Source: Spizellomyces punctatus DAOM BR117 (Eukaryota). Taken from it: a stretch of DNA of 64,000 nt. Positions 4,585 to 40,886 of this stretch are shown here, piece by piece. How positions within the stretch are numbered: position 1 is the stretch's first letter; each line of letters starts with the position of its first letter. The stretch lies in assembly GCA_000182565.2 (NCBI GenBank), contig KQ257451.1, one strand, 5' to 3'. A program made the position numbers and the translations under genes. The notes beneath the pieces were generated by a model. It did no database searches. It was not told the origin of the DNA and saw nothing but the letters and a program-made list of their open reading frames with translations.

Positions 4585-4731
4585 ATGTACTCCCACTCTG
4601 CTGAGAAGGTTTCAAACGACTACATCTCCGACCAGGTATGCCTAGGATGCGCCAGCACACCCACAGTCCTCAGGTACAATACTTACTTTCACTTATGCTG
4701 CTAGGTTTACAAGAGCTCTGGAAGCCAGTGA
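4585..4731 (+). promoter_or_regulatory. Arginine attenuator peptide (AAP)-like uORF of CPA1, spliced (exons 4585-4635 and 4705-4731)
   Basis: Spliced product MYSHSAEKVSNDYISDQVYKSSGSQ (25 aa) carries the DYISD core of fungal AAPs; intron GTATGC...CTAG at 4636-4704; ends about 110 nt upstream of the CPA1 ATG. Confidence 0.8.
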
Positions 4732-4839
4732 ACCCGTCCGCTACCAGCACATATATTTTCAATTACTATTTCTTCAATCGCCACGCAACGTCTCGCGTTC
4801 TCGCTCTCTTCTACCGCACAGCCTAAACACTACATCGAC

Positions 4840-6207
4840 ATGTTTGGATTTGCAAAAAATCTTGTCCGCCCTGCTGCGGTCGCCGCCCGGAATCCCATCA
4901 ACTGGAACGCGGTGAATACTCGCGCACGATTCTTGGCCACCTTGTCCAATGACAAAGCTGGCATTCTCCAGCGCCCGGTCGGCACTCAACCTGAACCGCC
5001 CATGCTCCCCGGTCTACTGCGCCTGCAAACTGGGGAGTCGTTCAAGGCCACATCTTTTGGCGCTCCACTCACTGGCGCTCCAATGTCTGGGGAAATTGTC
5101 TTCACCACCGCCTTGGTCGGCTATCCCGAGTCCATGACCGATCCTTCTTACCGTGGCCAAATTCTTGTATTCACTCAGCCTTTGGTCGGAAACTACGGTG
5201 TACCGGCGCCAACTCGTGACGAATTTGGTCTTCTGAAACACTTTGAGGCGGACGGGATTCAAGTTCAGGGTATTATCGTGAACGATTACGCGACAAAATA
5301 CTCTCACTGGAATGCCATTGAGTCTCTTGGTCAATGGTGTGCTCGCTACGGTGTCCCTGCTCTTACTGGAGTGGACACTAGGGCTGTTGTTACCATGTTG
5401 CGGGAACGTGGGTCGACTTTGGCTGAGATCCGGGTCGGAGAAGAAATGGTGAATGCCGAGCAGGTGCCTTTGGAGGATCCCAACGTGCGTAACCTTGTGG
5501 CTGAGGCCTCCACCAAAGTCAAAACGACTTACAACAAGGGCGGAGACGTCAAGATTGCTTTGATCGATTGTGGTGTGAAGCACAACATCATCCGGTGCTT
5601 GGCCAAGCGGGGTGCTCAGGTTGATGTTGTCCCGTGGGATCACGACCTTGTGCGGGACCCTGTAAAGTACGACGGTATCTTTATATCCAACGGCCCTGGT
5701 AACCCGGACAAGGCTCAAAAGACTGTTGCAAACTTGCGGGCGTTCATGTCTCAACCGTTCAAGGTGCCCACACCCATCTTCGGTATTTGCATGGGCAACC
5801 AGTTGTTGGGTCTAGCCGCCGGATACAAGTCATATAAACTCAAGTACGGTAACCGTGGTCACAACCAGCCTGCTCTTAACTTGGTTACCGGAAAATGCGT
5901 GATCACCTCGCAGAACCATGGGTACGCTCTCGATGATAGTGTCGAAGTTCCTGGCTGGATACCATTCTTCCGGAACGCGAACGATGGTAGTAACGAGGGT
6001 ATTCGCCACGCCGTCTTGCCGTATAGCTCAGTGCAATTCCACCCCGAGGCTATGGGTGGACCTTTGGACACCGATTACCTTTTCAGCGATTTCGTTCAGG
6101 AAGTGCGAGAATACAAGGCTAAGCGGGACAACCAGAGCCGAATCGTAATGCCGACCAGCGTACCTTTCCAGAGTGTTGAACAGCAGCCTGCCGCAGTTGC
6201 CGCTTAA
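4840..6207 (+). CDS. CPA1: Arginine-specific carbamoyl-phosphate synthase small subunit
   Basis: Motifs GEIVFTT..VGYPESMTDPSYRGQIL, SNGPGNP, GICMG (catalytic Cys), SQNHGYA, QFHPE; mitochondrial-type leader. Confidence 0.97.
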   Translation: MFGFAKNLVRPAAVAARNPINWNAVNTRARFLATLSNDKAGILQRPVGTQPEPPMLPGLLRLQTGESFKATSFGAPLTGAPMSGEIVFTTALVGYPESMTDPSYRGQILVFTQPLVGNYGVPAPTRDEFGLLKHFEADGIQVQGIIVNDYATKYSHWNAIESLGQWCARYGVPALTGVDTRAVVTMLRERGSTLAEIRVGEEMVNAEQVPLEDPNVRNLVAEASTKVKTTYNKGGDVKIALIDCGVKHNIIRCLAKRGAQVDVVPWDHDLVRDPVKYDGIFISNGPGNPDKAQKTVANLRAFMSQPFKVPTPIFGICMGNQLLGLAAGYKSYKLKYGNRGHNQPALNLVTGKCVITSQNHGYALDDSVEVPGWIPFFRNANDGSNEGIRHAVLPYSSVQFHPEAMGGPLDTDYLFSDFVQEVREYKAKRDNQSRIVMPTSVPFQSVEQQPAAVAA

Positions 6208-6533
6208 TTTGCAGACGAATTTTTTGGATACCATGGCCATTCGCACACAAGTGTGAATTTCTTAACTGGAATGGGGGTGTTGTTAAATGTGATGGGCCGC
6301 TAGCATAGTTTCTTTTGTACAATTGTTCCATGTTTCACTTTGTCTGAAATATATCACAGACAATCAAATTGTGAAATGTTTCCACTTGCTCATGTTCAGT
6401 GAATATGTTACATAACCAAAATATGAGGGTATGATTACACTTTCTGTTGGATATCGTTTATACGGTCCACAGCATATTAGAATATATAACGGGATGATTG
6501 GTGCTTCAAACTAACAGCAAGCGCAATACGTCC

Positions 6534-9500
6534 CTAGTCGATACTCAGCTCACTGCCAACCTTTCCTTTTCCCTTCCCATTTCCTTGTTCCAGCGGCGCC
6601 CTGCTGGAACTCCTTTCAACCACCTCACCAAAGGACGCTTCCGAAGAAAAGGAACAAGAAGAAGACACTGTCGCTTCCGACGATGCTGGTTTCGCAAGGA
6701 TTGGAGAACTTTCACTTCTCCCATACCCAGCGGCATCCACCTCTCGCCGACGATACATCTCCATATGATGCATTTGGGGGGGAGCTCTGTCCGAACATAA
6801 CTCTACTCCAAGCCCTTCCCCCGGTTTCCACAGCTCCCAATCTCGTCCCTGCTTGTCTCTTGTTATCGTATCCGCCGCGTTTAGCGTTCGAGAGAATGTA
6901 AAGGGGGAGCTGGATAAAGCGAGGGCGGTAGGTGGTATTACAGATAGACGAGACCCAACTGTCGTATCTGTTTCCATTAGTGTTTTCAAGCCAGGTGGGA
7001 TTGAGTTGCGGCGGAGGCGGGAGGTGTAGATTCTTTGAGTCATTGTGGCGGGTGTCTCTCCGTCAACGGCAGTCAACGCAGGGGATACAGTGTTTTGTCT
7101 GCCTGTCGCCACTAATGACGACGACGAAGATGGTGGGATGCTGGTTTCGTTTTCCGGACTGCACGGTCGATTTGTTGATACTGGGCCGTCTGTTCGTGCA
7201 CTGGTTTCGACTAAATTTTCAAAGTCCCGGACCTCCTTTGTGACCGAATCGACAAAAGTCTGAGGAAATTTAATCAGCACTTTTAGTAACTACTAGAGGA
7301 CAATGGTCAAGGCTTACCTCGAATTCGTGCATGTCGCTCCGCAGATTTGTCAAAGACGTCAGAGCGGTGTGTCGATTAGCCAAAGATGATCTCTCATCCA
7401 TTTTCAGACGCTCAGGATCTTTATAAGGTTGGCGCTGACGAACGCTTGATGCTTCGGCGTCGACGGTCCGTCCGAAAGGTGCACTACGATGTCTACCATC
7501 CTCTGTTCTCCACGATGATGTGGTATCTTCACCATATCTCGGTGGTGGGGAACCAGCAGGTCTCACCCGCCATCGAAGTGCGTCCAACTGTTGTTCTATA
7601 CTTTGTCGATAGCGACAACTCTGAGGCGTGTGTGGCTGGGAGGGCAGGTCTACATTCCACTTGCCATTGCTTATCGCTGGAGAGGTATCGCGTGACATGC
7701 TACTTGGACGCCAGCGAGATGTGCTGACATTCGTATCCAGTTCGCAACAGTCCGCCGTGTGTTGGTGACTACCGCTGTTATCATGGTGATCTGCTTCAGC
7801 CGCTCTAGCCGTGCGACTTGTATCATTTCTAAAGAAGCTGTGTTCGCTTTGGGCCATCACCTCTGCATATGCCCTACTCCATGCTTCATATCGTGTCGGC
7901 CAACGGCTTTGGCCGTTTTCATTAAGCAAGCTTCTCGAGAAAGTGGTGGGAGTATCCCCGGGAGAAGATAGAGGAGGGGATAAGTTTCGCGAGGAGCGAA
8001 GGTCGCTTGGAGATGGCGGGGTAATTGCCCTATTCGGTATAGGATGCGAATTGTAATCCATAGGAGAGATGGACCTGCCCGTTGTGAAGGATAGCATGTC
8101 CTCGGGACTATCACCGCGAGAGAAAAGTCTCGATCGAACTGGTGGCGACGGGGCATCCTCCATATCTGTATCAAACCTGGATGCATATGATTCTCGTGAC
8201 TCCGTCCTGGAGCGGCTCCACGATGAGTTGATGCTGGTTCGGGGTAGTGACATTGATGGAGAAGTGGAGTTCTGCTGTCCTTGTAGTTCTAGGTTTGGAC
8301 TAGCAGACTCTTTTTTCTCATCCACCGCACGAACGTTCGTCTCATTCGTTGTCAGGTCCGACAGAGTGGGCCGGACATCATCTCCAATATGTACGGCAAT
8401 GTAGCTGATGAAAAATGTTAGCGTGGCGGAAGAACACGAAAAGGCCAAGAAGGTGCCACTCACTGAGACAAGTCCCGACATTTTTGCGCGTAAGTAGGCG
8501 CTCGTACATGATACCGGAATTCCAACACATCGTCATTAGGATCCCAGTATCCGTCCCTCTCGAGCAAGTCGAGTCGACAAAAGTGGTTATAACCCCAACA
8601 TTCGCCAGGTGTGAAGTCGGATGAAAACTCCCTGTTTAAGCTCAGCGTATTGGATCCATGCTTGACCAATTCCACGCGGTATTGGTATTTTGATCGTGCA
8701 GGATATCCGCTCACCAATTCCACAAATACAGACAGGAAGAGGCCTTGCGATTTGCCATTGCCTTCATGGAGAAGTTTAGGATTCTATCAAGGCTGTTTGC
8801 TCTGCTTGCCAAGACGTACCTGAGGGATATACCTTCAATCGCCACATCAAACCAGAAACAAGAATGGGTTCTGAGTACACCGCATCTTCTGATTGCTGCC
8901 TTTCCCGAAACTTGTCGATGCGAAAGACCCCCATGTCATAATTTGGTACAAGATCGCTTTCAAATTCGCATGACACTTCGGGGAGAGTATATTCCTGTGG
9001 GTTTTCTGGATGTTGCTGTGGATGGATGTACGAAATCAGGCGAATTGCGTCGAAGGGGCGATTGAAATTAAGAGCATGTGCCGATCCGCCTTACCGTCTT
9101 CATCATGTAGATGATATCATCACTGCTTTTTATCAAATCAGAGTAAGAAGATTCGAGAAGGTGACTATGAACCGTTTCGAGTGTGGTTCCCAGCAAGTCC
9201 GTCTCTGTCGTAAGTCTCTCCTTATGTGCTGCATGATAGATTGGCTTCGTTCAGAATATACCCAAGATCTGATAAATCATGGCAAACTATAGCTACCAGT
9301 CAAAAGTGCCATCCTTGAATCAATCTGCTCATCCAAGCGGCGTTGCGCATTTCGAAGCAAATCTCGGTGTTGATTATCAAGCTAAGTTCAAACCGAATTC
9401 AGGATTCACAACAGATAAGTCCATGAAGCGTCCGTTGGAAGACTCACCTTTCGTTGTGCAGTTTTCAAGGCACTGATTCGTCCATCGACCTTCCTTATCA

Positions 9501-11166: not shown

Positions 11167-12579
11167 GTGTTCTACCTTCTCGTACCTTTTGAAGCTGTTG
11201 CGATAGTGTTGGCTGTTTCACTGTCGAGCGAAGGAAAAGTAATGTGCAATCGAGAAACTGTTGCCTGCGGTATAGTCTTTTTCTTGATGGCTTCGACGAT
11301 CACCAAAGCAGCAGCCGCACCAGTAACAGAACTGAAAAGGAACGAGGGGAAGAATTTCCTACCCGGAGACAAGAGGGATAAGTCAGACAGGACAAGGGCG
11401 GAAAGGGAAAAAGCAGCAAAGGACAGAGCAGCCAGAGAGAGGGGCAAGGACAGAGACAAGAATAATGATAACGACGGAGGGCGTGGTGGTAATAACAAAA
11501 AAGATGACAACGACCGCCAAGGTGACGGCTCTCCTGGTGCACGCAGTCCTATCAGGATCGTCCTCGTCACCCCGACATTCCCGACGTCTCCTACACCGAC
11601 CATTCCTGAACCTAATGCGGAGCCTGATACGGAGTCCGATATTGAAGGCTCGCCAACGCCAACTGCCCCCCCAACTACGTCCACGGACGTACCAGACTCA
11701 CAAGCAACCACAGAAGCTTCTCCCGGCCTGACGCCTGTAAGCAAGCAGTTAGATCCGTTGCGACCAGTAACGCGACCCTCCACGGCCGCCTTAGCAGGAA
11801 CTATGGCAGCTGCCATTGCGGTAACATTTATTCTACTGGCTCTGGCATGGTGGTATGCGAGATGGAAACGTAAACAAATGGTCAACCCCGACAAACTGGT
11901 TGCTAAGAACTCTGTGAAACGCCAAAAGACCATCGAGAGTAGATCTGACGCTGAGCAGGTTGAACACACAAAGTCGTCAACGACAGAGGCTACAATAACG
12001 GTGCCAGAGCCAGGGGTATCGAAAGAAGAATCATATTCGTATCCCGGTCAACATGATTCTGCGTACGATTTGCCAGTTGCAGAGTTTTTGTTGCCACCAA
12101 TGAATCGCATTAGCGGGGCAACGACGGCAACGATGGCAACAACGACAACAACAACAACAACAACAACAACAACCAATGGCAGGGAAGCATCCATGCTGTC
12201 AGCCATAAGCTCCTCCCCACCGAAGGATAACCTGTGGCCCCCCGACTCCCCGCGAGATTCGTACGTCACCGCATCCGCATCTTTGTCCCGTCCACAACCC
12301 GCCGCAACACATAACTCTATGGCCGCCAGGAAGAGTGAGCCACTAGCCCTTGATACGTCATCCATGCGACCGTCTTCCATAGCCACACCGACCACGCCTA
12401 AAACACCCCTTCTTAAGCGTTTCCTACAGAGCTTAGCAACGAGGGCAACAGGGGACAAGGATCGGAATACTATTCTATCCCCTGATTCATCCCGTGCTAG
12501 TGTGAGCACAGATTGGGATTCCAGTAGAATGAGTGCAATGACTGACGGTAGTTTGAGTAGATATCTGGAGGACGACTAG
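11167..12579 (+). CDS. Host single-pass membrane protein with Ser/Thr/Pro-rich regions
   Basis: 470-aa ORF with a hydrophobic N-terminal segment and TM AAAIAVTFILLALAWWY followed by RWKRK; the true start is probably a downstream ATG. Confidence 0.7.
   Translation: MFYLLVPFEAVAIVLAVSLSSEGKVMCNRETVACGIVFFLMASTITKAAAAPVTELKRNEGKNFLPGDKRDKSDRTRAEREKAAKDRAARERGKDRDKNNDNDGGRGGNNKKDDNDRQGDGSPGARSPIRIVLVTPTFPTSPTPTIPEPNAEPDTESDIEGSPTPTAPPTTSTDVPDSQATTEASPGLTPVSKQLDPLRPVTRPSTAALAGTMAAAIAVTFILLALAWWYARWKRKQMVNPDKLVAKNSVKRQKTIESRSDAEQVEHTKSSTTEATITVPEPGVSKEESYSYPGQHDSAYDLPVAEFLLPPMNRISGATTATMATTTTTTTTTTTTNGREASMLSAISSSPPKDNLWPPDSPRDSYVTASASLSRPQPAATHNSMAARKSEPLALDTSSMRPSSIATPTTPKTPLLKRFLQSLATRATGDKDRNTILSPDSSRASVSTDWDSSRMSAMTDGSLSRYLEDD
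12137..12175 (+). repeat. (ACA)n microsatellite encoding poly-Thr
   Basis: acaacaacaaca run visible at about 12137-12175. Confidence 0.85.
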
Positions 12580-12697
12580 TTGCTAGTCGAGTATATACTT
12601 TGTACATATATTTTGCAGACAATTGTATACAATGAAGAGTTCTTGTAGAAATCTTATGCAAGGCGAAATCCTTATCGATGCTAAATCATGAACAAGA

Positions 12698-12875
12698 GAA
12701 TGGGGATGATATAGTATAAGGAGGATTTAGACCATTACATGACTGTGCCACCCCTACATGACTGTGCCACACTGGAAGGTTACACAAGAGTGAGAATGGG
12801 TCACGTGGGGCGGGCCAGTAGAAAATCACGTGTTGATTGATAGCGTAATGGGTTACACAAGAGCGGAGTTTGAAA
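12698..12875 (+). repeat. Left terminal inverted repeat (178 bp)
   Basis: GAATGGGGATGATATAGTATAAGGAGG...GAGCGGAGTTTGAAA is the reverse complement of 39432-39609, apart from a 2-nt difference (TAGCGT vs TGACGT). Confidence 0.97.
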
Positions 12876-12899
12876 ATCACTCTTTGGGACTTTGAAATG

Positions 12900-13307
12900 T
12901 TAAAGCCAGAGTGAATAGTCTACTTCATTATACCAACGTCTCTTCATTTTACCCAAATAGCCGCCCACCCACTGATATGTACCCCTGTTCTCTGATACGT
13001 CAGACCTAAACTCTCTAACTGTAATCCATGAATCTAGCTGGGCAAGTGTCGGTTTATCCCCATCCGGGCGCCGTCTGTAGTAAACTTTCCACCCTCTGAC
13101 ATTATACCCAGAAACCCCACCACCAAGATAAAACGTATACACATCTAGCACAGTGTCGATTGCTGGTACACCCTCCATAACCAGGGGGTCATTTGGAAAC
13201 TGAAGTTTTGATAAGACTTTATCTTTTGCATCCTCGAACCGTGCCCGCCTAACAATCATCGTCTGAAGCTCGGCCGGTAGTTTGTCCCAGTGTGACTTGG
13301 CCGTCAT
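12900..13307 (-). CDS. Viral protein with an N-terminal F-box-like motif
   Basis: Begins SHWDKLPAELQTMI (LPxE(I/L)xxxI pattern); its ATG overlaps the upstream stop (ATGA). Confidence 0.6.
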   Translation of the reverse strand: MTAKSHWDKLPAELQTMIVRRARFEDAKDKVLSKLQFPNDPLVMEGVPAIDTVLDVYTFYLGGGVSGYNVRGWKVYYRRRPDGDKPTLAQLDSWITVREFRSDVSENRGTYQWVGGYLGKMKRRWYNEVDYSLWL

Positions 13308-13795
13308 AGTAATTGTCCGAGATAGTAAGAAGCTTTCTTGAAATCGGCCGTCTTGGTGTTGTCAGGTTTCTTGCCCGCTCTCGTCAGGTACTTGTAGACG
13401 TTTCCAATACAGAATCCCTCGAATTGCTCAGTCGACAGTTTGGCTTTCAGGATGTCGATCGTCTCGAGTCCGCCCTCTTTATAGTAGTCGGTTTTACCGT
13501 TAATAAAGAGTGTTGTACCGTTAAAACTTGCCGGTTGTTGAGATTCCACTTTGTTGCTGCTTGGTATAGAACGCTCTCCGATAGTTTCGTTGATATAGAC
13601 AGTCTGAAGTTTCGCCACTCCACTGCCGGGGGGATACACGTTGACCATCCTCTCTTTTGAAGAATCGTTGGTCTTCACAGCCACATAAGAGTTACCCGTT
13701 GTGTTCAAATACATCATACCAGTCCCGTTCATAGGAGCCACGTTGTCCATCTTCTTATAGTATGATTCCCCAACTGGCTCAAACGTGTAGAGCAT
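13304..13795 (-). CDS. DUF3310 (SaV/T7 gp1.7-like) domain protein, left copy
   Basis: C-terminal YYKEGGLETIDILKAKL..FEGFCIGNVYKYLTRAGKK..DFKKA.YYL; TATAAA at 13823-13828 on the minus strand; start at 13795 or 13750. Confidence 0.8.
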   Translation of the reverse strand: MLYTFEPVGESYYKKMDNVAPMNGTGMMYLNTTGNSYVAVKTNDSSKERMVNVYPPGSGVAKLQTVYINETIGERSIPSSNKVESQQPASFNGTTLFINGKTDYYKEGGLETIDILKAKLSTEQFEGFCIGNVYKYLTRAGKKPDNTKTADFKKASYYLGQLL

Positions 13796-13967: not shown

Positions 13968-14912
13968 ATGCACCAAAGTATATTCGATGGGCCAGGACAA
14001 CGAGAAGAGCAGTATTTGGATCTCATACGTGGCATTCTAGCATATGGGGAAAAACGCGCCGATAGGACAGGAACAGGCACACTAACCCTGTTTGCACCAC
14101 CTCAACTACGCTTTTCGCTGGATGGCAATAGCTTCCCTTTACTCACGACGAAGCGCGTACCGTTGCGTATGATTTTTGAGGAACTCATGTTTTTTATTCG
14201 AGGGCAGACAGATGCGACCATCCTGAGCAAAAAAGGGTGCAAGATCTGGGACGGAAATTCGTCTAAAAAAGCGTTGAAACACCTTGGGTTTGGTGACAGA
14301 CGGGCTGGGGATTTAGGTCCTGTGTACGGGTTTCAGTGGCGACATTTCGGGGCCGAATACACGAACGCGAAGGAGGATTATACTGGAAAAGGCGTGGATC
14401 AGTTGAAAGAAGTCATAAGACTTATCAAGGAAAATCCTACAGATCGAAGGATCGTCATGAGTGCGTGGAATCCAGCAGATCTATCAAAGATGGTGCTTCC
14501 ACCGTGCCACATGTTTTGTCAGTTCTATGTGTCTACACCCCCACCAGGGGAACCAGCGACTCTTTCGTGCCAAGTGTACCAGCGGTCATGCGACATGGGG
14601 CTTGGTGTACCTTTCAACATTGCAAGTTACGCTCTTCTCACCATCCTGATTGCGCATGTTACCCAGTTGGAACCAGGCGTGTTGATTCACTGCATGGGGG
14701 ACGCGCATGTGTACAATGATCATGTGGAGGCGCTCAAAGCGCAATTGGCGAGGAAGCCTAGACCGTTTCCGAAACTCTACATTTGGGGAAACGGGAGTAC
14801 ATCAACGACGGTAGATGAGATGGTTAAGGAACTGGAGGCGTTTGAGTGGGAACGGTTGAATTTGGTGGGGTACGAACCGCACCCTAAGATTACAATGAAC
14901 ATGTCTGTGTAG
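13968..14912 (+). CDS. Thymidylate synthase (ThyA/CDC21-type), virus-borne and intronless
   Basis: DRTGTGT, FAPPQLRFSL, FPLLTTKRV, GPVYGFQWRHFGA, LPPCH (catalytic Cys), YQRSCDMGLGVPFNIASY, GDAHVY. Confidence 0.97.
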   Translation: MHQSIFDGPGQREEQYLDLIRGILAYGEKRADRTGTGTLTLFAPPQLRFSLDGNSFPLLTTKRVPLRMIFEELMFFIRGQTDATILSKKGCKIWDGNSSKKALKHLGFGDRRAGDLGPVYGFQWRHFGAEYTNAKEDYTGKGVDQLKEVIRLIKENPTDRRIVMSAWNPADLSKMVLPPCHMFCQFYVSTPPPGEPATLSCQVYQRSCDMGLGVPFNIASYALLTILIAHVTQLEPGVLIHCMGDAHVYNDHVEALKAQLARKPRPFPKLYIWGNGSTSTTVDEMVKELEAFEWERLNLVGYEPHPKITMNMSV

Positions 14913-30080: not shown

Positions 30081-32250
30081 ATGGCCGACCATTTTCGTTT
30101 CTACCCTAACGCCGAGGACACCATCACCCCGTGGAACGCGAGGTACCAGTACCCGTCGCAATCCAATGCGGCGAGGAAAGTGACCCCGCGTATCCCGCCC
30201 GTCAACGGGATGGTGTTTGGCGCCAACTATGGGAAATACATCAAAGTCCAGTTCCCCGCGCAAGGTTACGTCAACCCGACCAACACGACACTGACGTTTG
30301 ACGTTACTCTCACGGGGTACTCCCAATCCTCGGCCGTCGAACAAGTCAGGTTCCAAAACAACATTCAATCGATTTTCAAACGTGTCAAGTGGATGTATGG
30401 GTCTACCCCCGGTGAAGATATTGACGACTACAATGTGATGGTCCGCAATTTGACCGAATGGACAGCGAGCAACGCCTATGGCACGATGGATTCCACGTCT
30501 ATTAATGAAGGGATCGGCGGGGTGGTGGTTGGACGGACCCTCACTGCCGGTGATCCAAGCCCTGTACAATCGGGTGCTGCTCTCGTCAATGCGCGTCAAG
30601 CGTACATCCAAGGCATTGACAACACGGACGCCGCATTAGGGTTTGGGGGTGTTCCCAATCGTCACAACCATAGTTTATTGACAGCTACTTATGGGACTAA
30701 CGCATGTACCCGGCGGTACCAGGTCTCCCTCATGTTGGGACTCTTGACACAGGAAAAGTTGATCCCAACTAAATTCATGGCCTCTCAACTGTCCATCGAA
30801 ATCGAACTCGCTTCCCCCGAAGAATGTATCATTGTCGCCTACAATGGAACCACTGACAACCTCGCTCCCCCGACCTATCTCGTCCACAACATCCAGCTCA
30901 TCCCTGAAATCATCAATTTCGACCCCTCCTACGACGAAATGTTCATCCGTGGATTGTCCCAAGGAGGAGTGTGAGTACCTTTCCATTTCAGCTAGTTCAC
31001 GTTCCACGTCCACGGCCCATGCCAGGTTTTCGGCACGATCGTCTATCATGTCACCGTTGAGATGCACCACTTTTGATAACCGATGGACCGGCAACAACGA
31101 ATCCATGTGAAAGACCGTAGCAACCAACTCGTCGACATTGTAAGTGTCTCCTTCCACACATACTGTATTACGCCCGTCGTGGCCATATTGTTTCTTACAC
31201 CATTTTCCTTTGTAGTATACGACTCCACGGTTGGTGACGACGAGTCCTTTCACTTGGGGGTGTGTGCGTGCATCAGTCTTTTTAGCAAAGTAACGCCCTT
31301 TACATAGATGCAACCGCCGAAAGACTGTGTCCCCCAACACCACACGGTTCCGCTCGCTACACCAATCCAACAAGGTTTCTACGGAGACATGATAGGCGGC
31401 TGCTGCTGCGGCGATGGACGTGTACCGCTTGACCTTGACTAACTTGTAAACATCTAATCCATGTTGTTCCTCGATCATATTTTTCAATGTTGATTAGGCC
31501 GATCAAGTTTGGAACGTGAGTTCACGGGTGGCTTTTAAAGCGTAGCTTACCCATTTTATATATCTTCTTTTTTCCAGATGGCACACGTTCAGAACATCTA
31601 CTGCCGGTTCAAGTGTCATTAATTTCCCTATCCACGAAAGAGGCCGCTCTATCAAATCCTTGTTTGCGGTGCAAAGGCGACAAGTTCCTGTTTACGGTCG
31701 AGATATGGGAGCCACGCCGAACGCTTCCAACGGGATTATGCAATCGTACCAGTACCGCATCGGTGGTGAATATTATCCCGCGGCTCCGGTCGAATTGTCC
31801 ATGTCACCGTCCAGCAAGGTTTCCAACGGGGGTACAGAGGCGTGGCTCGAATTACAAAAAGCACTCAACACCGTCGGGGATTACCGTCTTTCCTCGGCCA
31901 TCAACACGCTCCGTTGGCATGCGCCGTACAGTGCGGTTTTGTGTGAAACTGATTTCGCCGGTACCATTATACGCGGCGACCAGACAGAACCGTATGCCCA
32001 GACAGTGGTCGCCCCCACTTCCAAGCAACAGGCGGGTAATATGGGTTCACACCATTTCGCCGCGGCGATTTCATTGGAAGCGACCAACGGGACCGAGATC
32101 TCGGGTCTCAATGCGCAAGAACAGTCTGATATTACCTTTATGGCGCGTTACTCTGAGTCTCAATTGGCGGATTACCAGATCTTTGTTTTTGCTTACATTG
32201 ACAAGATGATTATTTTGCGTGAAAACAATGTGATGGAAATGGTAGAGTAG
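30081..32250 (+). CDS. Major capsid protein (double jelly-roll, PLV-type), 3 exons: 30081-30970, 31498-31515, 31578-32250 (526 aa)
   Basis: Splicing at GTGAGT..TAG and GTGAGT..CAG gives one frame (GLSQGGV-PIKFGT-WHTFRTS..ERGRSIKSLFAVQRR). MCP-like motifs IKVQFPAQGYVNP, EDIDDYNV, KLIP..LSIEIEL, YQYRIGGEYYP; directly upstream of the penton. Confidence 0.88.
30675..31478 (-). CDS. Intron-encoded HNH homing endonuclease-like protein (antisense to MCP)
   Basis: NUMOD1-like YTSIAAAAAAYHVS and HNH_3-like VDELVATVF..VVHLNGDMIDDRAENLAW; ATG 31478 (the ORF track starts at TTG 31487). Confidence 0.8.
   Translation of the reverse strand: MIEEQHGLDVYKLVKVKRYTSIAAAAAAYHVSVETLLDWCSERNRVVLGDTVFRRLHLCKGRYFAKKTDARTHPQVKGLVVTNRGVVYYKGKWCKKQYGHDGRNTVCVEGDTYNVDELVATVFHMDSLLPVHRLSKVVHLNGDMIDDRAENLAWAVDVERELAEMERYSHSSLGQSTDEHFVVGGVEIDDFRDELDVVDEIGRGSEVVSGSIVGDNDTFFGGSEFDFDGQLRGHEFSWDQLFLCQESQHEGDLVPPGTCVSPISSCQ
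30971..31497 (+). other. MCP intron 1 (527 nt, GT-AG) containing an antisense HNH endonuclease gene
   Basis: Donor GTGAGTAC at 30971, branch-like TGACTAAC at 31436-31443, no AG until TAG ending at 31497; removal restores the frame. Confidence 0.88.
31516..31577 (+). other. MCP intron 2 (62 nt, GT-AG)
   Basis: GTGAGT donor, GCTTAC branch-like site, TCTTCTTTTTTCCAG acceptor. Confidence 0.85.
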
Positions 32251-32306: not shown

Positions 32307-33179
32307 ATGCCCCAAGCTGTCGGTAAAGCTGCGTTCGGTATCGCTGATTTTTTACGTTACAATGAAGTGTATTTCGACTCTTCTGAACGGACGTATGGCA
32401 CGACCAATTCTCCAAATTATTCGGTGAAACCACTGACCAATGTCGTGGGGTTCAAACTCCTTGACGCCCAAATTCCGTTCTCGTATTACGTGTTTCCCGA
32501 GGGTCGCAACACGTTCCAGCTGTACGAACCGGCTACCGACGCCACAACGACCGTCACCATTCCGCCTGGAAATTACACGCCTTCGTCGTTCGTAGCCGTA
32601 CTGCAGACCGCCTTGGAAACGGCTGGTGACGCCGAGTACACCGTCGCCTTCTCCACTCCCACGGGCAAATTCACGATTACGTCCAGCGTGGCTGAACCGT
32701 TTGCGGTCACATTTGACTTTGACGGGCCAGGGCCGTGGATCGGGTTCACACATGCAGCCACGTTTACGGCCTCGGCGGGCGGTGTCTTAGTCGCTCCGTT
32801 CGTGGCACGACTGAGTGGGCCTGATTACATCTATGTCTGCTCCCAGTCCCTTGGGTTCCTCAATTACAATACGTTGCGGCTCGGTGACGCCTCGACGTCC
32901 GGCGCCGTGGTCGCTAAAATCCCTGTGACGGTGAATCCAGGTGGGGTCATCACATGGACGGACCCAGACCCAACAAAACTGTTTGAATGTGATGTGGGCG
33001 TGTTGGAACGTGTGGATTTGTATGTGGCCGCTGGGGGCGATGTGACCACTCCACTGGATTTCAACGGTGCACCGTTTTCCTTGAAATTTATGTTTGTCAC
33101 GTCTGACGATATCTATGTTAAACGTGGCGCTGGGGATACATTGGGAAATCCGACCAAGCGGATGATGTTTTCGAATTGA
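32307..33179 (+). CDS. Minor capsid (penton, single jelly-roll) protein
   Basis: VYFDSSER, NVVGFKLLDAQIPFSYY, VTIPPGNYT, DYIYVCS, VVAKIPV, PLDFNG are motifs typical of PLV/virophage pentons. Confidence 0.85.
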   Translation: MPQAVGKAAFGIADFLRYNEVYFDSSERTYGTTNSPNYSVKPLTNVVGFKLLDAQIPFSYYVFPEGRNTFQLYEPATDATTTVTIPPGNYTPSSFVAVLQTALETAGDAEYTVAFSTPTGKFTITSSVAEPFAVTFDFDGPGPWIGFTHAATFTASAGGVLVAPFVARLSGPDYIYVCSQSLGFLNYNTLRLGDASTSGAVVAKIPVTVNPGGVITWTDPDPTKLFECDVGVLERVDLYVAAGGDVTTPLDFNGAPFSLKFMFVTSDDIYVKRGAGDTLGNPTKRMMFSN

Positions 33180-33223
33180 ATTTTTGTATGTAAACATAAA
33201 GTATATCAATACATCCCATTACT

Positions 33224-35074
33224 ATGGAACGTCTTTCTCGTACGACACAACCGCCCAAAAACCCGGTCGTGACCGTTGGACCGCAAGGTCCGCTTGGCGC
33301 CACCCTTACTGGCCGTCAAGTCGTAGACACGCGCCGCGGGTACCGACAAGTCGATGTCAAACCTAAACTCCATGCCCAACGCGTGGATACCGTGGCTCCC
33401 GAAGTGAAAGGCAAATTTTGGGGCCGCCCCACATTCAAGACCCAGTACGGTTGGAAATTCCATGATTACAGAGCTCCGGATCTGTACCATGAACCTATCC
33501 TCAGTCCGCTCAAACAATTCGATTGGACCAACAAGGTCGCCACAACCATTCAGGCCGCTGACCGTACGGGGTCAAAGAACCCATGGGTTCCAAAAGCCAA
33601 CCCTGGAGGGTTGTTGGTCAAACCGAAAAATTATTTGACACGTGGGTCGAACTTGAGGACGTTGGAAACTGTTGATGAATATGGAAAACCGTTCATCCCT
33701 GACGTCATGGATTGGGAACGTACTCACAAAGATAACCTCAATCTTGAACGATCGGTTGTGGACCGCTACGATGCTCACTATGACGACCCAATGGAAACTG
33801 ACACCATCTTCTCTGGCCCTCCAAAAAATGATATGAAAGCGCGTGCCGCATCTGAACGTACTCAATTGAATGCATTGTTGAAAGCATTGGACAATGCTCG
33901 GTCACATAACATTGAACTCTCACCGCAGATGGCGGAAACTTTATCTCAATTGGAATCAGTGGCGAAGGACGCGGCCGATGCCATGGAAGGGATCGAACAC
34001 GTGGGCTATATCCAGCGCGCCACTCAGCCTTCCAAAACCGCTGCCGCAGAATCCGGCTACACGGCCCAAGCCATCCACCAATTCATTGCGATCCTCGATG
34101 GGATCAAGGCGGCTTCATTGACATCCTTACCCGAGACCGCATCACAAATGTGGTACGAACGTGTCTTGGACCAAGTGGAATCCTTGTCCCAAGCGTTCGG
34201 ATTCTTGTCTGAACGTTTGAATGATGATTCCGTGCCTAAAAACCAATTGGAACGGCAACACGGGATCCTTGTCGATGTCGAGAAGAGGGTTGGTTTACTC
34301 ACTGTCTATGCCCTCCACGGTCAACGTACACAGATGCGCCCCCAAGAAATGAATGCCAACGTGACTTACATCCACAACAAACTCGGTGAATGTTTATTGT
34401 GGGTGAACCAGCTGCTCCACTCTAAGGGGTACTCTGCCACAGCCGCCAACGGTTACCAAGACGTCCCTGCAACCGCTTCCGAGTTTGAGGATATTAGTGC
34501 GGCATGGGAAGATCTGTTGACCATGGCAGACGCCCCAACCCAACGTGCCATGGCGCCGGTCCTTAACGCGTTACGCCCTGCGCGTGAATCATTGAGTAAT
34601 ATTGCCATGGACATGGACATCACGCCTACGGCCATTGCCCCGGCTATTGGTAATGATATAGATGTAGAACGCTCGGCCGCAACCGGTGTTAGCAGCAGCG
34701 GCGGTGAAGGCGTCGCTGGTGGCGAGGCCTCGGCCACGGCGGTCACTCACACGGTCGTCCCCCAAACGACTGTCACTGGCACCAACCTCCCTGACGTAAC
34801 GGATGAGGAAATTGATACTTTCATTCAAACCGGTCAATTTAGGGCGGAATGGGGAATTCGCACTAAGGCTCAACGTGACCCCAAACGTCTTATACGTAAT
34901 AATGCATTTCGGGAAAGGGTCCGTACAACCCTCGCCCGTGAGAAAGCATTGACCCAACAACCGAGACGCAATACCATTAATCTGGATAAGCTCACCCCAC
35001 GAAAGACCGTCCTCCAACCTCCTGCAGCCCCGTCTACGTCCGTTGTACACGATGCTGACACTGAAGCCATGTAA
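33224..35074 (+). CDS. Viral hypothetical protein (616 aa), possibly a virion core protein
   Basis: Long ORF in the structural cluster, preceded by the TGTATGTAAACA motif; basic N-terminus, helical middle. Confidence 0.7.
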   Translation: MERLSRTTQPPKNPVVTVGPQGPLGATLTGRQVVDTRRGYRQVDVKPKLHAQRVDTVAPEVKGKFWGRPTFKTQYGWKFHDYRAPDLYHEPILSPLKQFDWTNKVATTIQAADRTGSKNPWVPKANPGGLLVKPKNYLTRGSNLRTLETVDEYGKPFIPDVMDWERTHKDNLNLERSVVDRYDAHYDDPMETDTIFSGPPKNDMKARAASERTQLNALLKALDNARSHNIELSPQMAETLSQLESVAKDAADAMEGIEHVGYIQRATQPSKTAAAESGYTAQAIHQFIAILDGIKAASLTSLPETASQMWYERVLDQVESLSQAFGFLSERLNDDSVPKNQLERQHGILVDVEKRVGLLTVYALHGQRTQMRPQEMNANVTYIHNKLGECLLWVNQLLHSKGYSATAANGYQDVPATASEFEDISAAWEDLLTMADAPTQRAMAPVLNALRPARESLSNIAMDMDITPTAIAPAIGNDIDVERSAATGVSSSGGEGVAGGEASATAVTHTVVPQTTVTGTNLPDVTDEEIDTFIQTGQFRAEWGIRTKAQRDPKRLIRNNAFRERVRTTLAREKALTQQPRRNTINLDKLTPRKTVLQPPAAPSTSVVHDADTEAM

Positions 35075-35498: not shown

Positions 35499-35652
35499 CA
35501 CTAGTCGTAGTAGTTGTGATGAGGATGGGTGGTGGGACGTGACCGTCGACTCCACATCTTCCGATTCTGATAGTGATGATAATTCTGATGATGAGCAAGT
35601 ATAAATAGATCGTCTTCCGTAGATTTTCTCCCCTTTTTACTCCCAATACAAC

Positions 35653-36054
35653 ATGTTGTCTCCACGTATCACGGTGTTCCACTACCCTGAAGGCCATAAC
35701 TCCTTTGATATACTCACAGGAGAGATCATCAATACGATGCATAAACACAACTTTTGTCCGATGGTAGATGCCCTCCATGGCCATGACGAGACGTGGCTTT
35801 TCGAAACATTTCACAACGTTCAACATCATCGATTCGTTTTCATGACCATGCATGGATTCGTTTCTGCACCTGTCGACCGTATAAAGGACAACACGTTTGG
35901 CGACCCTAGTTTTGTCATTTATTTTCCTGACGATCCTGATCTCGTTGTTCCTTGGAAATCTATCGTTTTATATTTCGAAGGGATATTTGGGTTACGTGCA
36001 CCTGTTTTCATAGACGATACGTTGAGGTACTTTCTCGGTGTCGAAAAAGCATAA
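35653..36054 (+). CDS. Viral hypothetical protein (133 aa)
   Basis: ATG ORF with TATAAA at 35600-35605. Confidence 0.6.
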   Translation: MLSPRITVFHYPEGHNSFDILTGEIINTMHKHNFCPMVDALHGHDETWLFETFHNVQHHRFVFMTMHGFVSAPVDRIKDNTFGDPSFVIYFPDDPDLVVPWKSIVLYFEGIFGLRAPVFIDDTLRYFLGVEKA

Positions 36055-36107
36055 ATAGACAGCATAGCAACGGATTTCCCCTTTCCCACTTTTTATTACA
36101 CCAATAT

Positions 36108-36278
36108 ATGGTTGTGCTCAGTCCTGTTCAGTTTTGGTGTGCCATCATATTTGTTGTCTTTGTACCTTTGATCTCACTTGTTGGGCTGTTGGTCTATCAA
36201 CATACTCAGAGCGCTAAACTTGCCGTCGCCGAAACCGTTCGCCAGCAACACCACAGCGCGTGCACATCTCCATTATGA
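36108..36278 (+). CDS. Small single-TM viral protein (56 aa)
   Basis: Hydrophobic FWCAIIFVVFVPLISLVGLLVY; its stop overlaps the next ATG (ATGA). Confidence 0.5.
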   Translation: MVVLSPVQFWCAIIFVVFVPLISLVGLLVYQHTQSAKLAVAETVRQQHHSACTSPL

Positions 36279-36929: not shown

Positions 36930-38559
36930 ATGAACGTGACGCCTAAAATTGTACGTAAACATCAAACTGTGCGTGTAGCACAAGGGTTGCCAGGCCACCA
37001 ACGCGACCGTGATGGCACCTTGCTGTCGCTGGACGTGGCTTCTGTACCGGAAGATGAGACAGATCACCATCCCGCCCCACCACACCCCGCGCTGCTTCCA
37101 CACGAAACGTCGCTGCTGCTCGTCGCGTCAAAGGGGTCCGGCAAGACGACGTTGATCTGTAATTTGCTCGATTTCTACAGAGCATTTTTTCATACAATAC
37201 TTGTGTTCAGCCCCACAATCAACAACGATTCAAAATGGGTGAGTACCTCTTCTTGTCTTTTCCGTTTACGGTTGGCCAGCATGACGATGGCTCGCCGTTG
37301 GTTTTCATACCGCGTCACCCATTCGAGGTTATCTGCGCGGTTGTTTTTGGTGTTGCCGTCGATATGGTCAATCTCGGGTGAACAGTGTTTAAGGAGCGAA
37401 TGTTTTTCGTCTGGATAAAATGTGTCTCCAACAATACGATGGATGAGGTAGTTTTTGTACTTGATCATGACTTGCATGTAGCCGTTACTGCCGATGTACC
37501 CAAACGTACGTCCACCGTTCGCATGTTCTATACGCCCATGTGACGAGACTTTGACTGGTAGGGTTGGGTGGTCAAACCATACTTCGTACTCGCCAGGCTG
37601 TAACATGAGGTCTTGATTGGCGTATTTCCATTCGTAACCCCGATAACGGAATTGAGTATTGCCGTGTTTTTTGAAGTGATACCATAACGTTGGTTGGGAT
37701 ACCCCGATTGATTTTGCCGCAGCGTTTATAGATCTGAATTCTGTTTCTGAATCGTCCAACTCGATTCTAACCACTCTTCTATTTGCTGGTGTCCATTTCC
37801 TCATTTTTCTCATAGGATTGGGTCAAGGGCCAGAAACTGTTGGCGCGCAACACAAAACTCGAAAAGTTTGTCAAATCCCTCGAAACGAAAAGGGCCCGCG
37901 ACCTTTCAGGCGTTGTCGTAGGGCGTGAACCGATGGAGTTGGCTAGAGAACGGGAGAAGGAAGACGATATTGTCGACGAGGATGATTTCACAGGATATAT
38001 CCCCGATGAATGTTTTCTCGACGATTACAATGAACAGATGCTGGTCGATGTGATGAATGAACAAGACAAGTTAATCAAATGGCTTAAAGCCCACGGAGGG
38101 CACAAGACGGTTGCGAATCGCCTTTTACTGATTTTCGATGATATGGTCGGGTCGTCCCTCTTTTCGAACGCAAGAAACAATGCCTTCAAACGTCTCAACT
38201 CCAATCTGCGCCACTACTCTGCTTCTGCCATTATTGTGTCCCAGTCGTACAAGGAACTTCCACGCATCTGCCGAGTCAATGCCTCGGGTGTCATCTTGTT
38301 TGAAACGCCTAATGAAAAAGAGTTGGAAGTGTTATACGAAGAAAATCCTTGCTCGCTCAAGAAAAACGATTGGCTTTCCTGTTATTACGAATGTACAGCT
38401 GACCCATTCTCGTTCATGATGATCAACTATAAGCGGCCGAAACAACTCAGGATCTCAAAACGATTCGATGAGTTTTTGCTGTGCGATACGATGAAAGGTA
38501 TCCCGGATCGACGGCCACCAATGAGATCTGCCGCAGATGACCATCCACCAACCATATAA
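36930..38559 (+). CDS. DNA packaging ATPase (A32/FtsK-HerA), 2 exons: 36930-37238 and 37816-38559 (350 aa)
   Basis: Walker A LLVASKGSGKTT in exon 1; Walker B LLLIFDDMVG and LRHYSASAIIVSQ in exon 2; a phase-0 GT-AG intron joins NNDSKW-DWVKGQ. Confidence 0.92.
37190..37813 (-). CDS. Intron-encoded HNH homing endonuclease (antisense to ATPase)
   Basis: NUMOD1-like EFRSINAAAKSIGVS, VSSHGRI, GYMQV, and canonical HNH_3 LIHRIVGDTF..IDHIDGNTKNNRADNLEWVT..EN. Confidence 0.92.
   Translation of the reverse strand: MRKMRKWTPANRRVVRIELDDSETEFRSINAAAKSIGVSQPTLWYHFKKHGNTQFRYRGYEWKYANQDLMLQPGEYEVWFDHPTLPVKVSSHGRIEHANGGRTFGYIGSNGYMQVMIKYKNYLIHRIVGDTFYPDEKHSLLKHCSPEIDHIDGNTKNNRADNLEWVTRYENQRRAIVMLANRKRKRQEEVLTHFESLLIVGLNTSIV
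37239..37815 (+). other. ATPase intron (577 nt, GT-AG) containing an antisense HNH endonuclease gene
   Basis: Donor GTGAGTAC at 37239, branch-like TTCTAAC at 37765-37771, pyrimidine tract, first AG at 37814-37815. Confidence 0.9.
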
Positions 38560-39091: not shown

Positions 39092-39424
39092 ATGGGCTTA
39101 TTCGACCCTACACCCCCACTCATGGCTTCCACCCCCGCATTAGGCCCATTCCCTTCCAACGCCCCTCGCCCAGCAGGCTTTTTTGCGACAGTTGCTGAAC
39201 CGGCCCAAACTCCTCCCCCGGCGGCCGATTATTACAAGGAGGGCGGGCTTGAGACCATCGACATTTTGAAAGCCAAACTGTCGACTGAACAATTCGAGGG
39301 ATTCTGTCTTGGAAACGTGTACAAGTACCTGACGAGAGCGGGCAAGAAACCGGACAACTCCAAATCCGATGATTTCAAGAAAGCGTACTATTATTTAGGC
39401 TTGCTGGCTGGTCCTAAAGAGTAA
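39092..39424 (+). CDS. DUF3310 (SaV/T7 gp1.7-like) domain protein, right copy
   Basis: DYYKEGGLETIDILKAKLSTEQFEGFCLGNVYKYLTRAGKKPDN; abuts the right TIR; alternative start at 39032. Confidence 0.8.
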   Translation: MGLFDPTPPLMASTPALGPFPSNAPRPAGFFATVAEPAQTPPPAADYYKEGGLETIDILKAKLSTEQFEGFCLGNVYKYLTRAGKKPDNSKSDDFKKAYYYLGLLAGPKE

Positions 39425-39431
39425 TGTAGAC

Positions 39432-39609
39432 TTTCAAACTCCGCTCTTGTGTAACCCATTACGTCATCAATCAACACGTGATTTTCTACTGGCCCGCCCC
39501 ACGTGACCCATTCTCACTCTTGTGTAACCTTCCAGTGTGGCACAGTCATGTAGGGGTGGCACAGTCATGTAATGGTCTAAATCCTCCTTATACTATATCA
39601 TCCCCATTC
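39432..39609 (-). repeat. Right terminal inverted repeat (178 bp)
   Basis: TTTCAAACTCCGCTC...ATCATCCCCATTC matches the left TIR in inverted orientation. Confidence 0.97.
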
Positions 39610-40886
39610 AGGAATTTATGAAATAGGTAGACTACTAAAAGGAGGTGGTATAACGGCATGTGTATGATGCTGGGGCGGGTTATCGGAGTGCATTTCCAAA
39701 CTTCAGGGATGCATTCAAAGCCCAACGAAATCACCATCTTTTATCTGAATGAACACCCCGGTGCCGATCCGCCTTCGCTACTATCGTTTCTGTATTCACC
39801 TAAGCAAATACCTTTCTCAAATTAGTCCAGTCAGATTTTTGGACCAAGGGAGCAGTCTTTGCTAATTAGCTTTCACATTGCATCTTTGGCATAGGCAATG
39901 TGCTGATCTAGTGGCAAAACTTGCAGGCCAACCAAATGAGAACGTTTCTGGGCATTCGTAAACAACAACAGTTGCTCAACAGCGTCAGGGTCCGCTGAAA
40001 CCCTGCAATACGGTCACAATCTGATTCGGCTGACATTGCTCGCCATCCCGATCATGTTTACGTAAGCCACCATATTGCAATTAAGGTTTTCGTCTGTGTA
40101 ATCTAATGATCACCAGCACATGTGTCTCTCCAAGAGTTACTGTACAATCCCAAGTTCACCAAATAGCAACCCATCCTTTGATCGAGGCCTTAATCCTCAA
40201 TGGCTGGATATCGGGACACATCTATCGTAAATTCTGGAAGGACATATCCTTGAATTGCACAAGTTCAAATATCTGTTGTAGAGCTACAAATTCATCTGTT
40301 TGGTGCTTCTAAACTATTACGTCGTGTACTCTAATCTACCAAATGTGTAGATGTTATCTGGAGAGAACACAAAGGATTGTCGGTTTTCTGGCTCCACAAA
40401 TCGCTTCTGTTTCGAGAACCTCTTAAATTGCGTTCGGACAGCCTGGATGCAACAGTCCATGCTTCATCTTTCAAACCTCGGCCAACATTGGGCCACCGCG
40501 TACTGATCATCGTATACCATTTCTCATTTTTCAATTTTCAGCTGGTTGGGGGCATCCTTTTCGATGGGTGAATACTGATGCTGACACCATATGTAATTAA
40601 CTACCATTGGGATGCACTTCTTCATACTATTGAAAGTGGCCATCAAGGTAAAACATCGCATTGCTTGGCACACAAAACATTATAATTGGATGGAATGTGG
40701 ATTACTTAAGCCTAAAAAGGCAAGAATTTGTGACATCAGCAGCATTAATTATCGTCAAGCCCCATCACTGCATGCCAGCGAGTAGATGGCGGATTAGAAC
40801 GTCCAAAGCTTCACTGCAGCTGGCACCTGAATCTCGGCTGGTTATTCTCAGTACACTCCGTTTCTTCCATCATCGTTTGCTTGAAC

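Follow-up and report, generated by a model that had tools for sequence, protein, structure and literature searches.

A spliceosomal intron in the capsid gene of a polinton-like virus integrated in Spizellomyces punctatus carries an antisense HNH-like gene predicted to lack both metal ligands

A 64,000-nt stretch of contig KQ257451.1 (assembly GCA_000182565.2) of Spizellomyces punctatus DAOM BR117, hereafter the window, contains an integrated polinton-like virus (PLV) whose major capsid protein (MCP) gene is interrupted by two introns. The first of these, MCP intron 1, is a spliceosomal intron that carries on its opposite strand an open reading frame (ORF) for a predicted protein of the I-HmuI-like HNH family, in which the two residues expected to bind the metal ion are replaced. 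The MCP gene and the antisense ORF comprise the following features, with positions given in the window and the MCP gene on the plus strand:

30081..30970, plus: MCP exon 1 (PLV-type double jelly-roll capsid protein), from the ORF and homologues, with its end fixed by RNA joints
30971..31497, plus: MCP intron 1, 527 nt, GTGAGT...TTAG, spliceosomal type, carrier of the antisense HNH ORF, from RNA joints and loose ends in runs X1 and X11
31140..31215, plus: inner 76-nt GT..AG intron (GTAAGT...TTTGTAG), from an X1 contig of depth 17.6 against 138-149 for the MCP exons
31498..31515, plus: 18-nt mini-exon that finishes a Val codon and encodes PIKFGT, from the letters between the sides of the X11 joint and a loose end in X1
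31516..31577, plus: MCP intron 2, 62 nt, GTGAGT...CCAG, from RNA runs and boundary letters
31578..32250, plus: MCP exon 3, from the ORF, homologues and RNA, with poly(A) addition near 32327
30675..31487, minus: ORF of 270 codons from TTG, from the ORF list, with its stop at 30675-30677
30675..31478, minus: HNH-like ORF from an in-frame ATG, 267 aa, from homology, profile and orthologue
31353..31430, minus: N-terminal helix-turn-helix (HTH), residues ~20-45 (TTG numbering), a weak Pfam match to HTH_28 (E=0.078)
31137..31271, minus: NUMOD4-like beta-sheet region, residues ~73-117, aligned with the NUMOD4 'VSxxGxV' motif of relatives, with a model confidence (pLDDT) >90
30975..31136, minus: variant HNH motif, residues 118-171, VDELVA ... 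V141-H142-LNGD ... N154-L ... R163, from alignments
30675..30970, minus: ORF tail, codon-aligned with MCP exon 1, from codon statistics

The capsid protein has 489 homologues at E<=1e-3, the best of which are 56-57% identical, 520-560 aa long and encoded on contigs of ~20-30 kb; searches of the viral_contigs set with the MCP, as a single sequence and as a profile, returned no matches. Removal of intron 1 is seen directly in RNA. In X11, an RNA run of a relative that is 90-99% alike and ~93% identical overall, the interval from 30971 to 31578 is bridged by a joint with the mini-exon letters between its sides, and the same form is present in X1. The 5′ splice site lies at 30970|30971 and the intron boundaries are GT..AG. 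The PIKFGT of the mini-exon is the counterpart of PIKFSS in the MCP homologues, and a single 607-nt intron from 30971 to 31577, which would drop these six conserved residues, was ruled out by the reads that show the mini-exon. Six introns are seen in the element, all with GTGAGT or GTAAGT at the 5′ end, and the splice sites of intron 1 fit the element's GTGAGT...YAG consensus. A search of intron 1 against Rfam gave no match at E<=1 and no group I or group II signature, and its folding energy is ordinary (z=-1.18; 12 of 100 shuffled sequences fold as well). Intron 1 is thus cut from the capsid mRNA by the host spliceosome.

Run X1 bears the label 'DNA?', which is a guess, and the possibility that it represents DNA with intron-less alleles was rejected. 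It behaves as cDNA, because its depth is 0 over 32619-33491, it shows five GT..AG/CT..AC skips, and the 76-nt inner intron is in no contig. About 12% of the MCP molecules in X1 keep intron 1, and all of these are without the inner 31140-31215 segment, which may mark a splicing intermediate or be an intron in its own right, nested or cryptic.

The antisense ORF consists of 169 codons within the intron and 98 codons antisense to exon 1, with its start in the intron and its stop in the exon. The ATG at 31478 is taken as the start because a 2-nt indel in the ATAT directly upstream of it in the ~93% relative leaves the ATG itself intact. This ATG is 19 nt inside the 3′ splice site, its frame stays open up to the 5′ splice site, and the ORF leaves only ~20 nt of intron 1 unoccupied. 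When intron 2 is read antisense (31516-31577, minus), a TATA-box-like TATATAAAA is found ~80 nt upstream of the HNH ATG, and the mini-exon and intron 2 could form part of the HNH expression unit; the HNH copy in the ATPase intron described below is without such a motif.

Stops in the frame of the exon-1 tail arise solely from the MCP codons TTA, CTA and TCA, which account for 2 of the 296 codons of exon 1. With MCP codon usage, a run of 98 open codons has a probability of 0.26; with the pooled usage of the element it is 0.08. The tail also shows no independent coding signature, at 0.041 bits/codon where the MCP sense frame reaches 0.296. These codon statistics make a selected function for the tail unnecessary, and that idea was set aside; the frame would simply run on into the exon until it meets a stop, as a side effect of codon usage. 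What stands out is that no stop for the ORF occurs within the intron.

The only other HNH-like frame of the window also lies antisense in an intron, that of the packaging-ATPase gene of the same element:

37239..37815, plus: intron of the packaging-ATPase (A32-like) gene, 577 nt, GTGAGTACC...CATAG, from the X1 joint 37238|37816
37190..37813, minus: canonical HNH_3 plus NUMOD1 ORF, 207 aa, antisense in the ATPase intron, Pfam HNH_3 at 2e-10

In X1, the spliced (26.7) and unspliced (43.6) forms of this intron account for the exon 2 depth of 70.1, and exon 2 matches Pfam Pox_A32. As for MCP intron 1, no Rfam family is found in the ATPase intron at E<=1. Its HNH ORF begins with an ATG 2 nt from the 3′ splice site and stops 49 nt into exon 1, and its product matches I-HmuI (1U3E) at E=4.3e-5. 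The 9-mer GTGAGTACC has just two exact occurrences in the window, one at the start of each HNH-bearing intron, where the antisense ORFs read it in different frames.

The protein predicted from the MCP-intron ORF aligns with the ATPase-intron protein by BLASTP at 26% identity over 157 aa (E=5e-6), an alignment that covers the HTH, the beta region and the HNH motif. It matches PHROG 959, 'HNH endonuclease' (E=1.8e-11), and hhalign of the ORF with seven canonical intron HNHs gives a probability of 97.8% (E=9.7e-13) over 138 columns. An exhaustive phmmer search with the ORF found 30 matches at E<=1e-3; an alignment of 19 sequences was made from the ORF, the ATPase-intron protein and 17 of these 30, and in it Pfam HNH_3 is recognised in 17/19 and NUMOD4 in 11/19, the ORF itself being without an HNH_3 match. 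The AlphaFold model of the ORF has a mean pLDDT of 76 and a predicted TM-score (pTM) of 0.64, with values >90 over residues 71-120, and in a Foldseek search of the PDB its sole match at E<=0.001 is I-HmuI (1U3E; E=9.7e-6, 107 columns). The HTH aligns with the NUMOD1 region of the ATPase-intron protein and is modelled with helices at 25-31 and 36-44. Together, the sequence comparisons and the predicted fold identify the product as a true I-HmuI-like HTH/NUMOD4/HNH protein, with the same architecture as the ATPase copy, that is, an N-terminal HTH, a NUMOD4-like sheet and an HNH motif. It shares the NUMOD4-like sheet, the HNH and the HTH with I-HmuI, a nicking enzyme encoded in a phage group I intron, and differs from it in having the HTH at the N-terminus rather than the C-terminus, V and R in place of D74 and N96, and an antisense gene in a spliceosomal intron.

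A first-pass annotation of the window, made from the letters and a list of their ORFs, had already placed a second, diverged HNH ORF antisense in MCP intron 1, and much of that description stands. The ORF exists, and the strings VDELVA and VVHLNGDMIDDRAENL are found in its translation; the 296-nt antisense run into exon 1 is exact (30675-30970); and the intron end at 31497 agrees with RNA contigs that join exon 1 to the mini-exon at 31498-31515 and then to 31578. The annotation also held that the ORF has the same architecture as the ATPase-intron enzyme at low sequence similarity and belongs to the same family, as the BLASTP, hhalign and PHROG results bear out. Its suggestion of an independent or older invasion is supported by 26% identity to the ATPase copy, against 55% to an orthologue at the same MCP site elsewhere. 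The expectation that HNH similarity would appear in profile searches was borne out by PHROG 959 and hhalign, and failed for Pfam HNH_3, where the score is below the cut-off, and for NCBIfam.

The positions of the motif were mapped through the I-HmuI alignment together with the pairwise, 19-sequence and profile alignments. The residues of I-HmuI that are said to carry out catalysis correspond to the ORF as follows:

H75, reportedly the general base: ORF H142, kept
N87, reportedly structural: ORF N154, kept
D74, reportedly a metal ligand, directly before the His: ORF V141, replaced
N96, reportedly a metal ligand, nine residues past the Asn: ORF R163, replaced

The codon of the motif His is at 31062-31064, and H142 and N154 are invariant columns of the 19-sequence alignment. 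The two ligand positions are A and R in the orthologue (P0121) and D and N in the ATPase-intron enzyme. The predicted site is not randomly eroded, in that exactly both metal ligands are lost. VxHLNGDxxDDRAxNLxWxVDVEREL is invariant between the ORF and P0121, and ~25 residues around the site are nearly unchanged.

The same state recurs among more distant relatives. A motif-pattern scan of the 30 phmmer matches yielded 62 modules in 27 proteins, which were chosen by similarity to the query, so that the counts are not population frequencies. Forty-six of the 62 modules have no D/N/H/E before the His, and these variant modules have N/H at the second ligand position in 2/46 cases against 9/16 for the canonical modules (Fisher p=2.4e-5). 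An Asp four residues past the His is present in 34/46 variant and 6/16 canonical modules (p=0.014), and about a dozen modules have a VDELVA-like string in place of VHRLVA. Several multi-module proteins mix variant modules with one canonical module, and others are variant throughout. By these comparisons the ligand-less motif is a recurrent and conserved form of the predicted site. The nearest non-orthologous relatives of the window's protein are multi-module NUMOD4/HNH_3 proteins (P0122, P0123, P0132) with the exact variant motif, VDELVA ... xHLNGDxxD[DN]RxENLxW; these are arrays of 2-5 modules that sometimes end in a canonical one, unlike the window's protein, which is a single module with an HTH. 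Arrays of 3-5 tandem NUMOD4 plus ligand-less HNH modules are seen in P0122, P0124, P0126, P0133 and others, some of which end in one canonical module or another nuclease motif, and judged from their sequences such proteins may form a so far uncharacterised class of modular proteins that bind or cut DNA.

Persistence of the ORF as a protein can be assessed from its orthologue, codon usage and transcription. P0121 is 55% identical (E=7.5e-49), sits at the same MCP site and has a tail that is likewise antisense to the MCP, as judged from the protein only. Both frames are open with in-frame gaps only, in lineages that are 45% diverged in protein. Under a codon model derived from the element's genes, the intron part of the ORF scores 0.206 bits/codon in its own frame and negative values in the other five; the element's genes range over 0.06-0.33 bits/codon, and the ATPase-intron HNH scores 0.113. 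In run X20, where poly(A) ends show that the first mate has the sense of the RNA, the depth over 30582-30872, just past the ORF stop, is 4.82 minus-sense against 0.5 plus-sense, and over 36984-37274, beyond the ATPase-intron HNH stop, the two values are 39.3 and 2.2. Comparison of the ~93% relative with the window shows differences at 48/660 positions of the intron contig and at 54/972 and 29/435 positions of the exon contigs, with exon differences mostly in third positions (26 of the 36 listed rows), so the intron is not evolving much faster than constrained coding sequence. The ORF therefore looks like a conserved variant that is maintained as a protein and is not decaying neutrally.

The first-pass description of the catalytic residues as eroded holds for the two metal ligands, replaced by V141 and R163, and does not hold for the general-base H142 and the structural N154, which are kept. 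Its further view that the enzyme may be degenerating is not supported in that form, given an orthologue in the same state, an intact ORF in both lineages, the codon score of 0.206 bits/codon and the minus-sense reads at the 3′ end. Homologues with the same substitutions are found, in sequence, in the orthologue and in the 46/62 modules.

The MCP and ATPase genes belong to a ~27-kb element delimited by terminal inverted repeats of up to ~800 nt:

12681..13491, no strand: left terminal inverted repeat, from the pairs I1 (198 nt, 94%) and I2 (175 nt, 86%)
39225..39626, no strand: right terminal inverted repeat, from the inverted-repeat search

Genes of the element encode a protein-primed PolB, a thymidylate synthase, a 1790-aa repeat-rich fibre-like protein, the MCP, a DUF5901 protein and the A32 ATPase. 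Outside the repeats lie genes for a carbamoyl-phosphate synthase small chain, a chitin synthase-myosin motor fusion, a lysine methyltransferase and an F-box protein. The architecture of the chitin synthase points to a fungus-like host genome. The element is an integrated PLV because it combines a PLV-type MCP and PolB/A32/DUF5901 with terminal inverted repeats and cellular flanking genes. The thymidylate synthase gene (13968-14912) is beside that of the protein-primed PolB, and the gene for the fibre-like protein has internal repeats of 57 nt, 138 nt and ~1.45 kb. Two further spliced introns are seen in X1, at 35567-35717 and ~36000-36165, in small minus-strand genes (CT..AC on the plus strand), and the element is intron-rich for a PLV.

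Comparable insertions were sought in a survey of 80 metagenomic PLV MCP loci. An antisense HNH_3 ORF that fills a GT..AG insertion in the MCP gene occurs in 4/80 loci, at three other sites: after residue ~27 in L075 and L080, after residue 6/7 in L056, and near the C-terminus in L029. The boundaries of these four introns were read from sequence alone. In all four, 17-60 nt separate the ATG from the 3′ splice site, and the introns contain branch-point-like TACTAAC/CTAAC motifs; three of the four HNHs are canonical at both ligand positions, L080 having Leu before the His. Relatives of the ATPase-type HNH at 31-37% are located in MCP introns of other PLVs, and the MCP-type HNH of the window is found in 0/80 loci. 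The ORFs of the ATPase intron (37190-37238) and of L080 (~2889-2895) extend beyond the 5′ splice site to a stop in the exon upstream of it, those of L075, L029 and L056 stop within ~15 nt inside the intron, and the antisense HNH ORF abuts the donor site in every case. L075 has tandem MCP paralogues at 2405-4611 and 4702-6342 (52% and 48% to exon 1 of the window), with the HNH intron in the first only.

The site of MCP intron 1 is uninterrupted in 64 of the 78 loci with both flanks, and at exactly this site ORF-less introns of 23-32 nt are found in four loci, with three distinct sequences (L013/L072, identical at the junction; L009; L051). Introns of 22-32 nt with GT..AG ends are seen in the MCP genes of the AT-rich PLVs L009, L013/L072, L051, L053 and L080, and their sequences suggest hosts with very short introns. 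The ATPase site is without extra sequence in 27 of the 32 loci that have both halves, two of them on the opposite strand. Near it, a 74-nt intron in L008 is shifted by 1 nt, and L051, L060 and L065 have small introns 5-6 nt away; the ATPase gene of L065 contains further insertions besides. Near-identical 27-nt introns (GTAAGG...CGACTGAACGTAG) are repeated several times in the ATPase genes of L060 (~9313-9345) and L065 (~11904-12222), twice in tandem, and on their sequence look like an introner-type repeated intron family.

The closest known systems are the mirusvirus spliceosomal homing introns, or 'shintrons', which are described in the available parts of one study (PMC12768974, Nat Microbiol 2025) as GT-AG introns that lack group I/II features and harbour homing-endonuclease genes. 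That account lists 334 intron-nested endonuclease genes in mirusviruses, 171 of them HNH, with the HNH types preferring MCP genes; it finds the introns concentrated in virion-morphogenesis genes and proposes that they spread by cutting intron-less alleles. According to its authors no such association had been seen earlier, and laboratory cultures are needed to test the endonucleases (PMC12768974, same parts). The window's intron resembles what is described there in being GT-AG, spliced, without a ribozyme signature and located in the MCP gene with a nested gene of an endonuclease family. It differs in its carrier, a PLV with a double jelly-roll MCP and protein-primed PolB that is integrated in a genome and expressed in sequenced cultures, and in an ORF that is antisense, fills the intron from splice site to splice site, stops outside it and is without the metal ligands. 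The main text of PMC12768974, as far as it was available, makes no mention of antisense, orientation or polintons, and its supplementary tables may bear on these points. The term 'shintron' was not found in the other biological papers searched.

For PLVs, the portions available of two sources (bioRxiv 10.1101/2022.07.28.501842; PMC12220804) describe free-standing or fused HNH and GIY-YIG genes between capsid genes. These are likewise tied to capsid and packaging genes, but are described there as intron-less or fused, unlike the HNH genes of the window, L029, L056, L075 and L080, which lie within a spliced or splice-site-bounded MCP intron. No description of intron-borne HNH genes in PLVs was found in the literature on PLVs, HNH and spliceosomal introns, and no paper was found that brings together a spliceosomal intron, an HNH endonuclease and antisense orientation. 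The intron of the window, extremely compact and with its gene antisense, is probably a PLV member of the shintron kind.

The explanation that is probably correct is that MCP intron 1 is a PLV-capsid shintron with a stable, conserved, ligand-less HNH protein that is maintained, and that its ancestor spread by homing. Gene conversion set off by the endonuclease would most likely have carried that ancestor into capsid genes without an intron, at the highly conserved ...GGV|PIKF... site. With the gene in antisense orientation, the HNH could be made from a separate mRNA that stays unspliced, even though the sense RNA loses the intron. By analogy, the canonical ATPase-intron HNH presumably still spreads by homing. 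For the MCP-intron protein, the most likely state may be that it is no longer an I-HmuI-type nickase in its own right, a judgement that is close to evenly balanced.

Several observations weigh against a maintained protein of this family. Antisense expression of the MCP HNH is low, and the strand evidence from X20 takes the form of binned depth; in X1, 31164-31215 is in no contig. In the ~93% relative there are 11 gap letters in 30942-31601, of which 3 are placed and 8 are not, and a frameshift in the ORF is possible. Only one orthologue is known among ~5.8 billion proteins, and it was found as an open ORF, which is an ascertainment bias; a word-index protein search with the ORF alone gave no matches, a two-sequence profile recovered only P0121, and searches for the HNH locus gave 0 in viral_contigs and 0 in metagenome_contigs. 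Block-wise conservation between the orthologues is not significantly uneven (chi-square ~20, 16 d.f., p~0.2), and uneven conservation was accordingly dropped as a sign of selection. The score of the ORF against Pfam HNH_3 (PF13392) is 12.2 bits with a cut-off of 24.8 (E=0.14), the NCBIfam search returned nothing, a look-up of protein clusters yielded no names, and the PDB sequence search gave only chance antibody matches at E~1. Because the fold model is based on an alignment of HNH_3 relatives, it is biased towards that fold. Ligand changes of this type abolish cleavage in characterised HNH enzymes, and a dying homing endonuclease would look the same.

A dying enzyme, late in the homing cycle, with its catalytic site lost and its frame still open as too little time has passed, is accordingly the rival that draws on many of these points. 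It would account for the replacement of both metal-ligand positions and the Pfam score below threshold, for antisense expression ~8-fold below that of the ATPase-intron HNH in X20 (4.82 vs 39.3) and for the great rarity of the MCP-type HNH family; the ORF-less 23-32-nt introns at the identical MCP site (L013/L072, L009, L051) could be the end products of ORF loss. Yet the substitutions are common to a 45%-diverged orthologue, both ORFs are open with in-frame gaps only, and by a rough estimate neutral drift to such divergence should bring several stops or frameshifts. With a codon signature as strong as that of bona fide genes, and the ligand-less motif in 46/62 modules of many unrelated proteins, decay is rather unlikely. 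Doubtful as well is an enzyme that is still an active nickase or endonuclease, with the intron still mobile, and that binds its metal through other residues, for which D146 of the NGD turn and D160/E162, where the helix begins, are candidates. Certain beta-beta-alpha-metal nucleases bind their metal through one protein ligand only. Here the general-base His is retained, and D146, D160 and E162 are invariant in the orthologue, as is VDVEREL; the excess of Asp at His+4 in variant modules (34/46 vs 6/16, p=0.014) suggests a relocated acidic ligand. D/E at +6 to +8 is nevertheless no commoner in variant (23/46) than in canonical modules (9/16), no experimental precedent was found, and proteins in which variant modules stand beside one canonical module (P0123, P0132, P0140, P0144) fit non-catalytic DNA binders.

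Two other accounts carry little weight. A self-splicing group I/II intron of the type that encodes an HNH in phages and giant viruses is suggested by the classical location of HNH_3/I-HmuI relatives in group I introns and by a 5′ exon that ends in T and an intron that ends in G. It is highly improbable, and was rejected on the lack of an Rfam match at E<=1 (including an RF00028-type core), on ordinary folding energy and on lack of space, the ORF filling all but ~20 nt of the intron and leaving no room for a ribozyme core; the splice sites moreover fit the element's consensus. That the ORF is a chance open frame antisense to intron and exon, rather than a gene, can be dismissed almost entirely. 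Chance explains the 98-codon tail, but for the intron part this account is refuted by homology over 138 columns, an orthologue at E=7.5e-49 and the codon signature.

A PLV-capsid shintron with a maintained ligand-less HNH remains the preferred reading, and it bears on PLVs more widely. The same kind of element as the mirusvirus shintrons, proposed late in 2025 from metagenomes according to the parts of that work available, is now seen in an unrelated virus lineage, the PLVs. More tentatively, PLVs may have an ultra-compact antisense shintron family of their own, in which the intron is close to the reverse complement of an HNH gene plus splice signals. The present introns would then be the first pair in a sequenced, transcriptionally active, culturable host. 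One of them would be catalytically canonical, and the other would encode a conserved HNH that has lost its ligands and persisted beyond homing, whether domesticated as a DNA-binding factor, which might for instance protect or label the capsid-gene site in competition with other viruses, or turned into a novel catalytic form of the beta-beta-alpha-metal site. There are also consequences for annotation: the methods of PMC10120064, in the part available, assume that endogenous PLVs are without introns, and gene calling on such a basis will split capsid and ATPase genes and mislabel HNH genes as free-standing. The host of this PLV has RNA-seq and ChIP-seq runs, and splicing is directly visible in the reads. 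With a canonical and a ligand-less HNH intron in one element, this matched natural pair makes homing, the antisense layout and the fate of an endonuclease after fixation testable.

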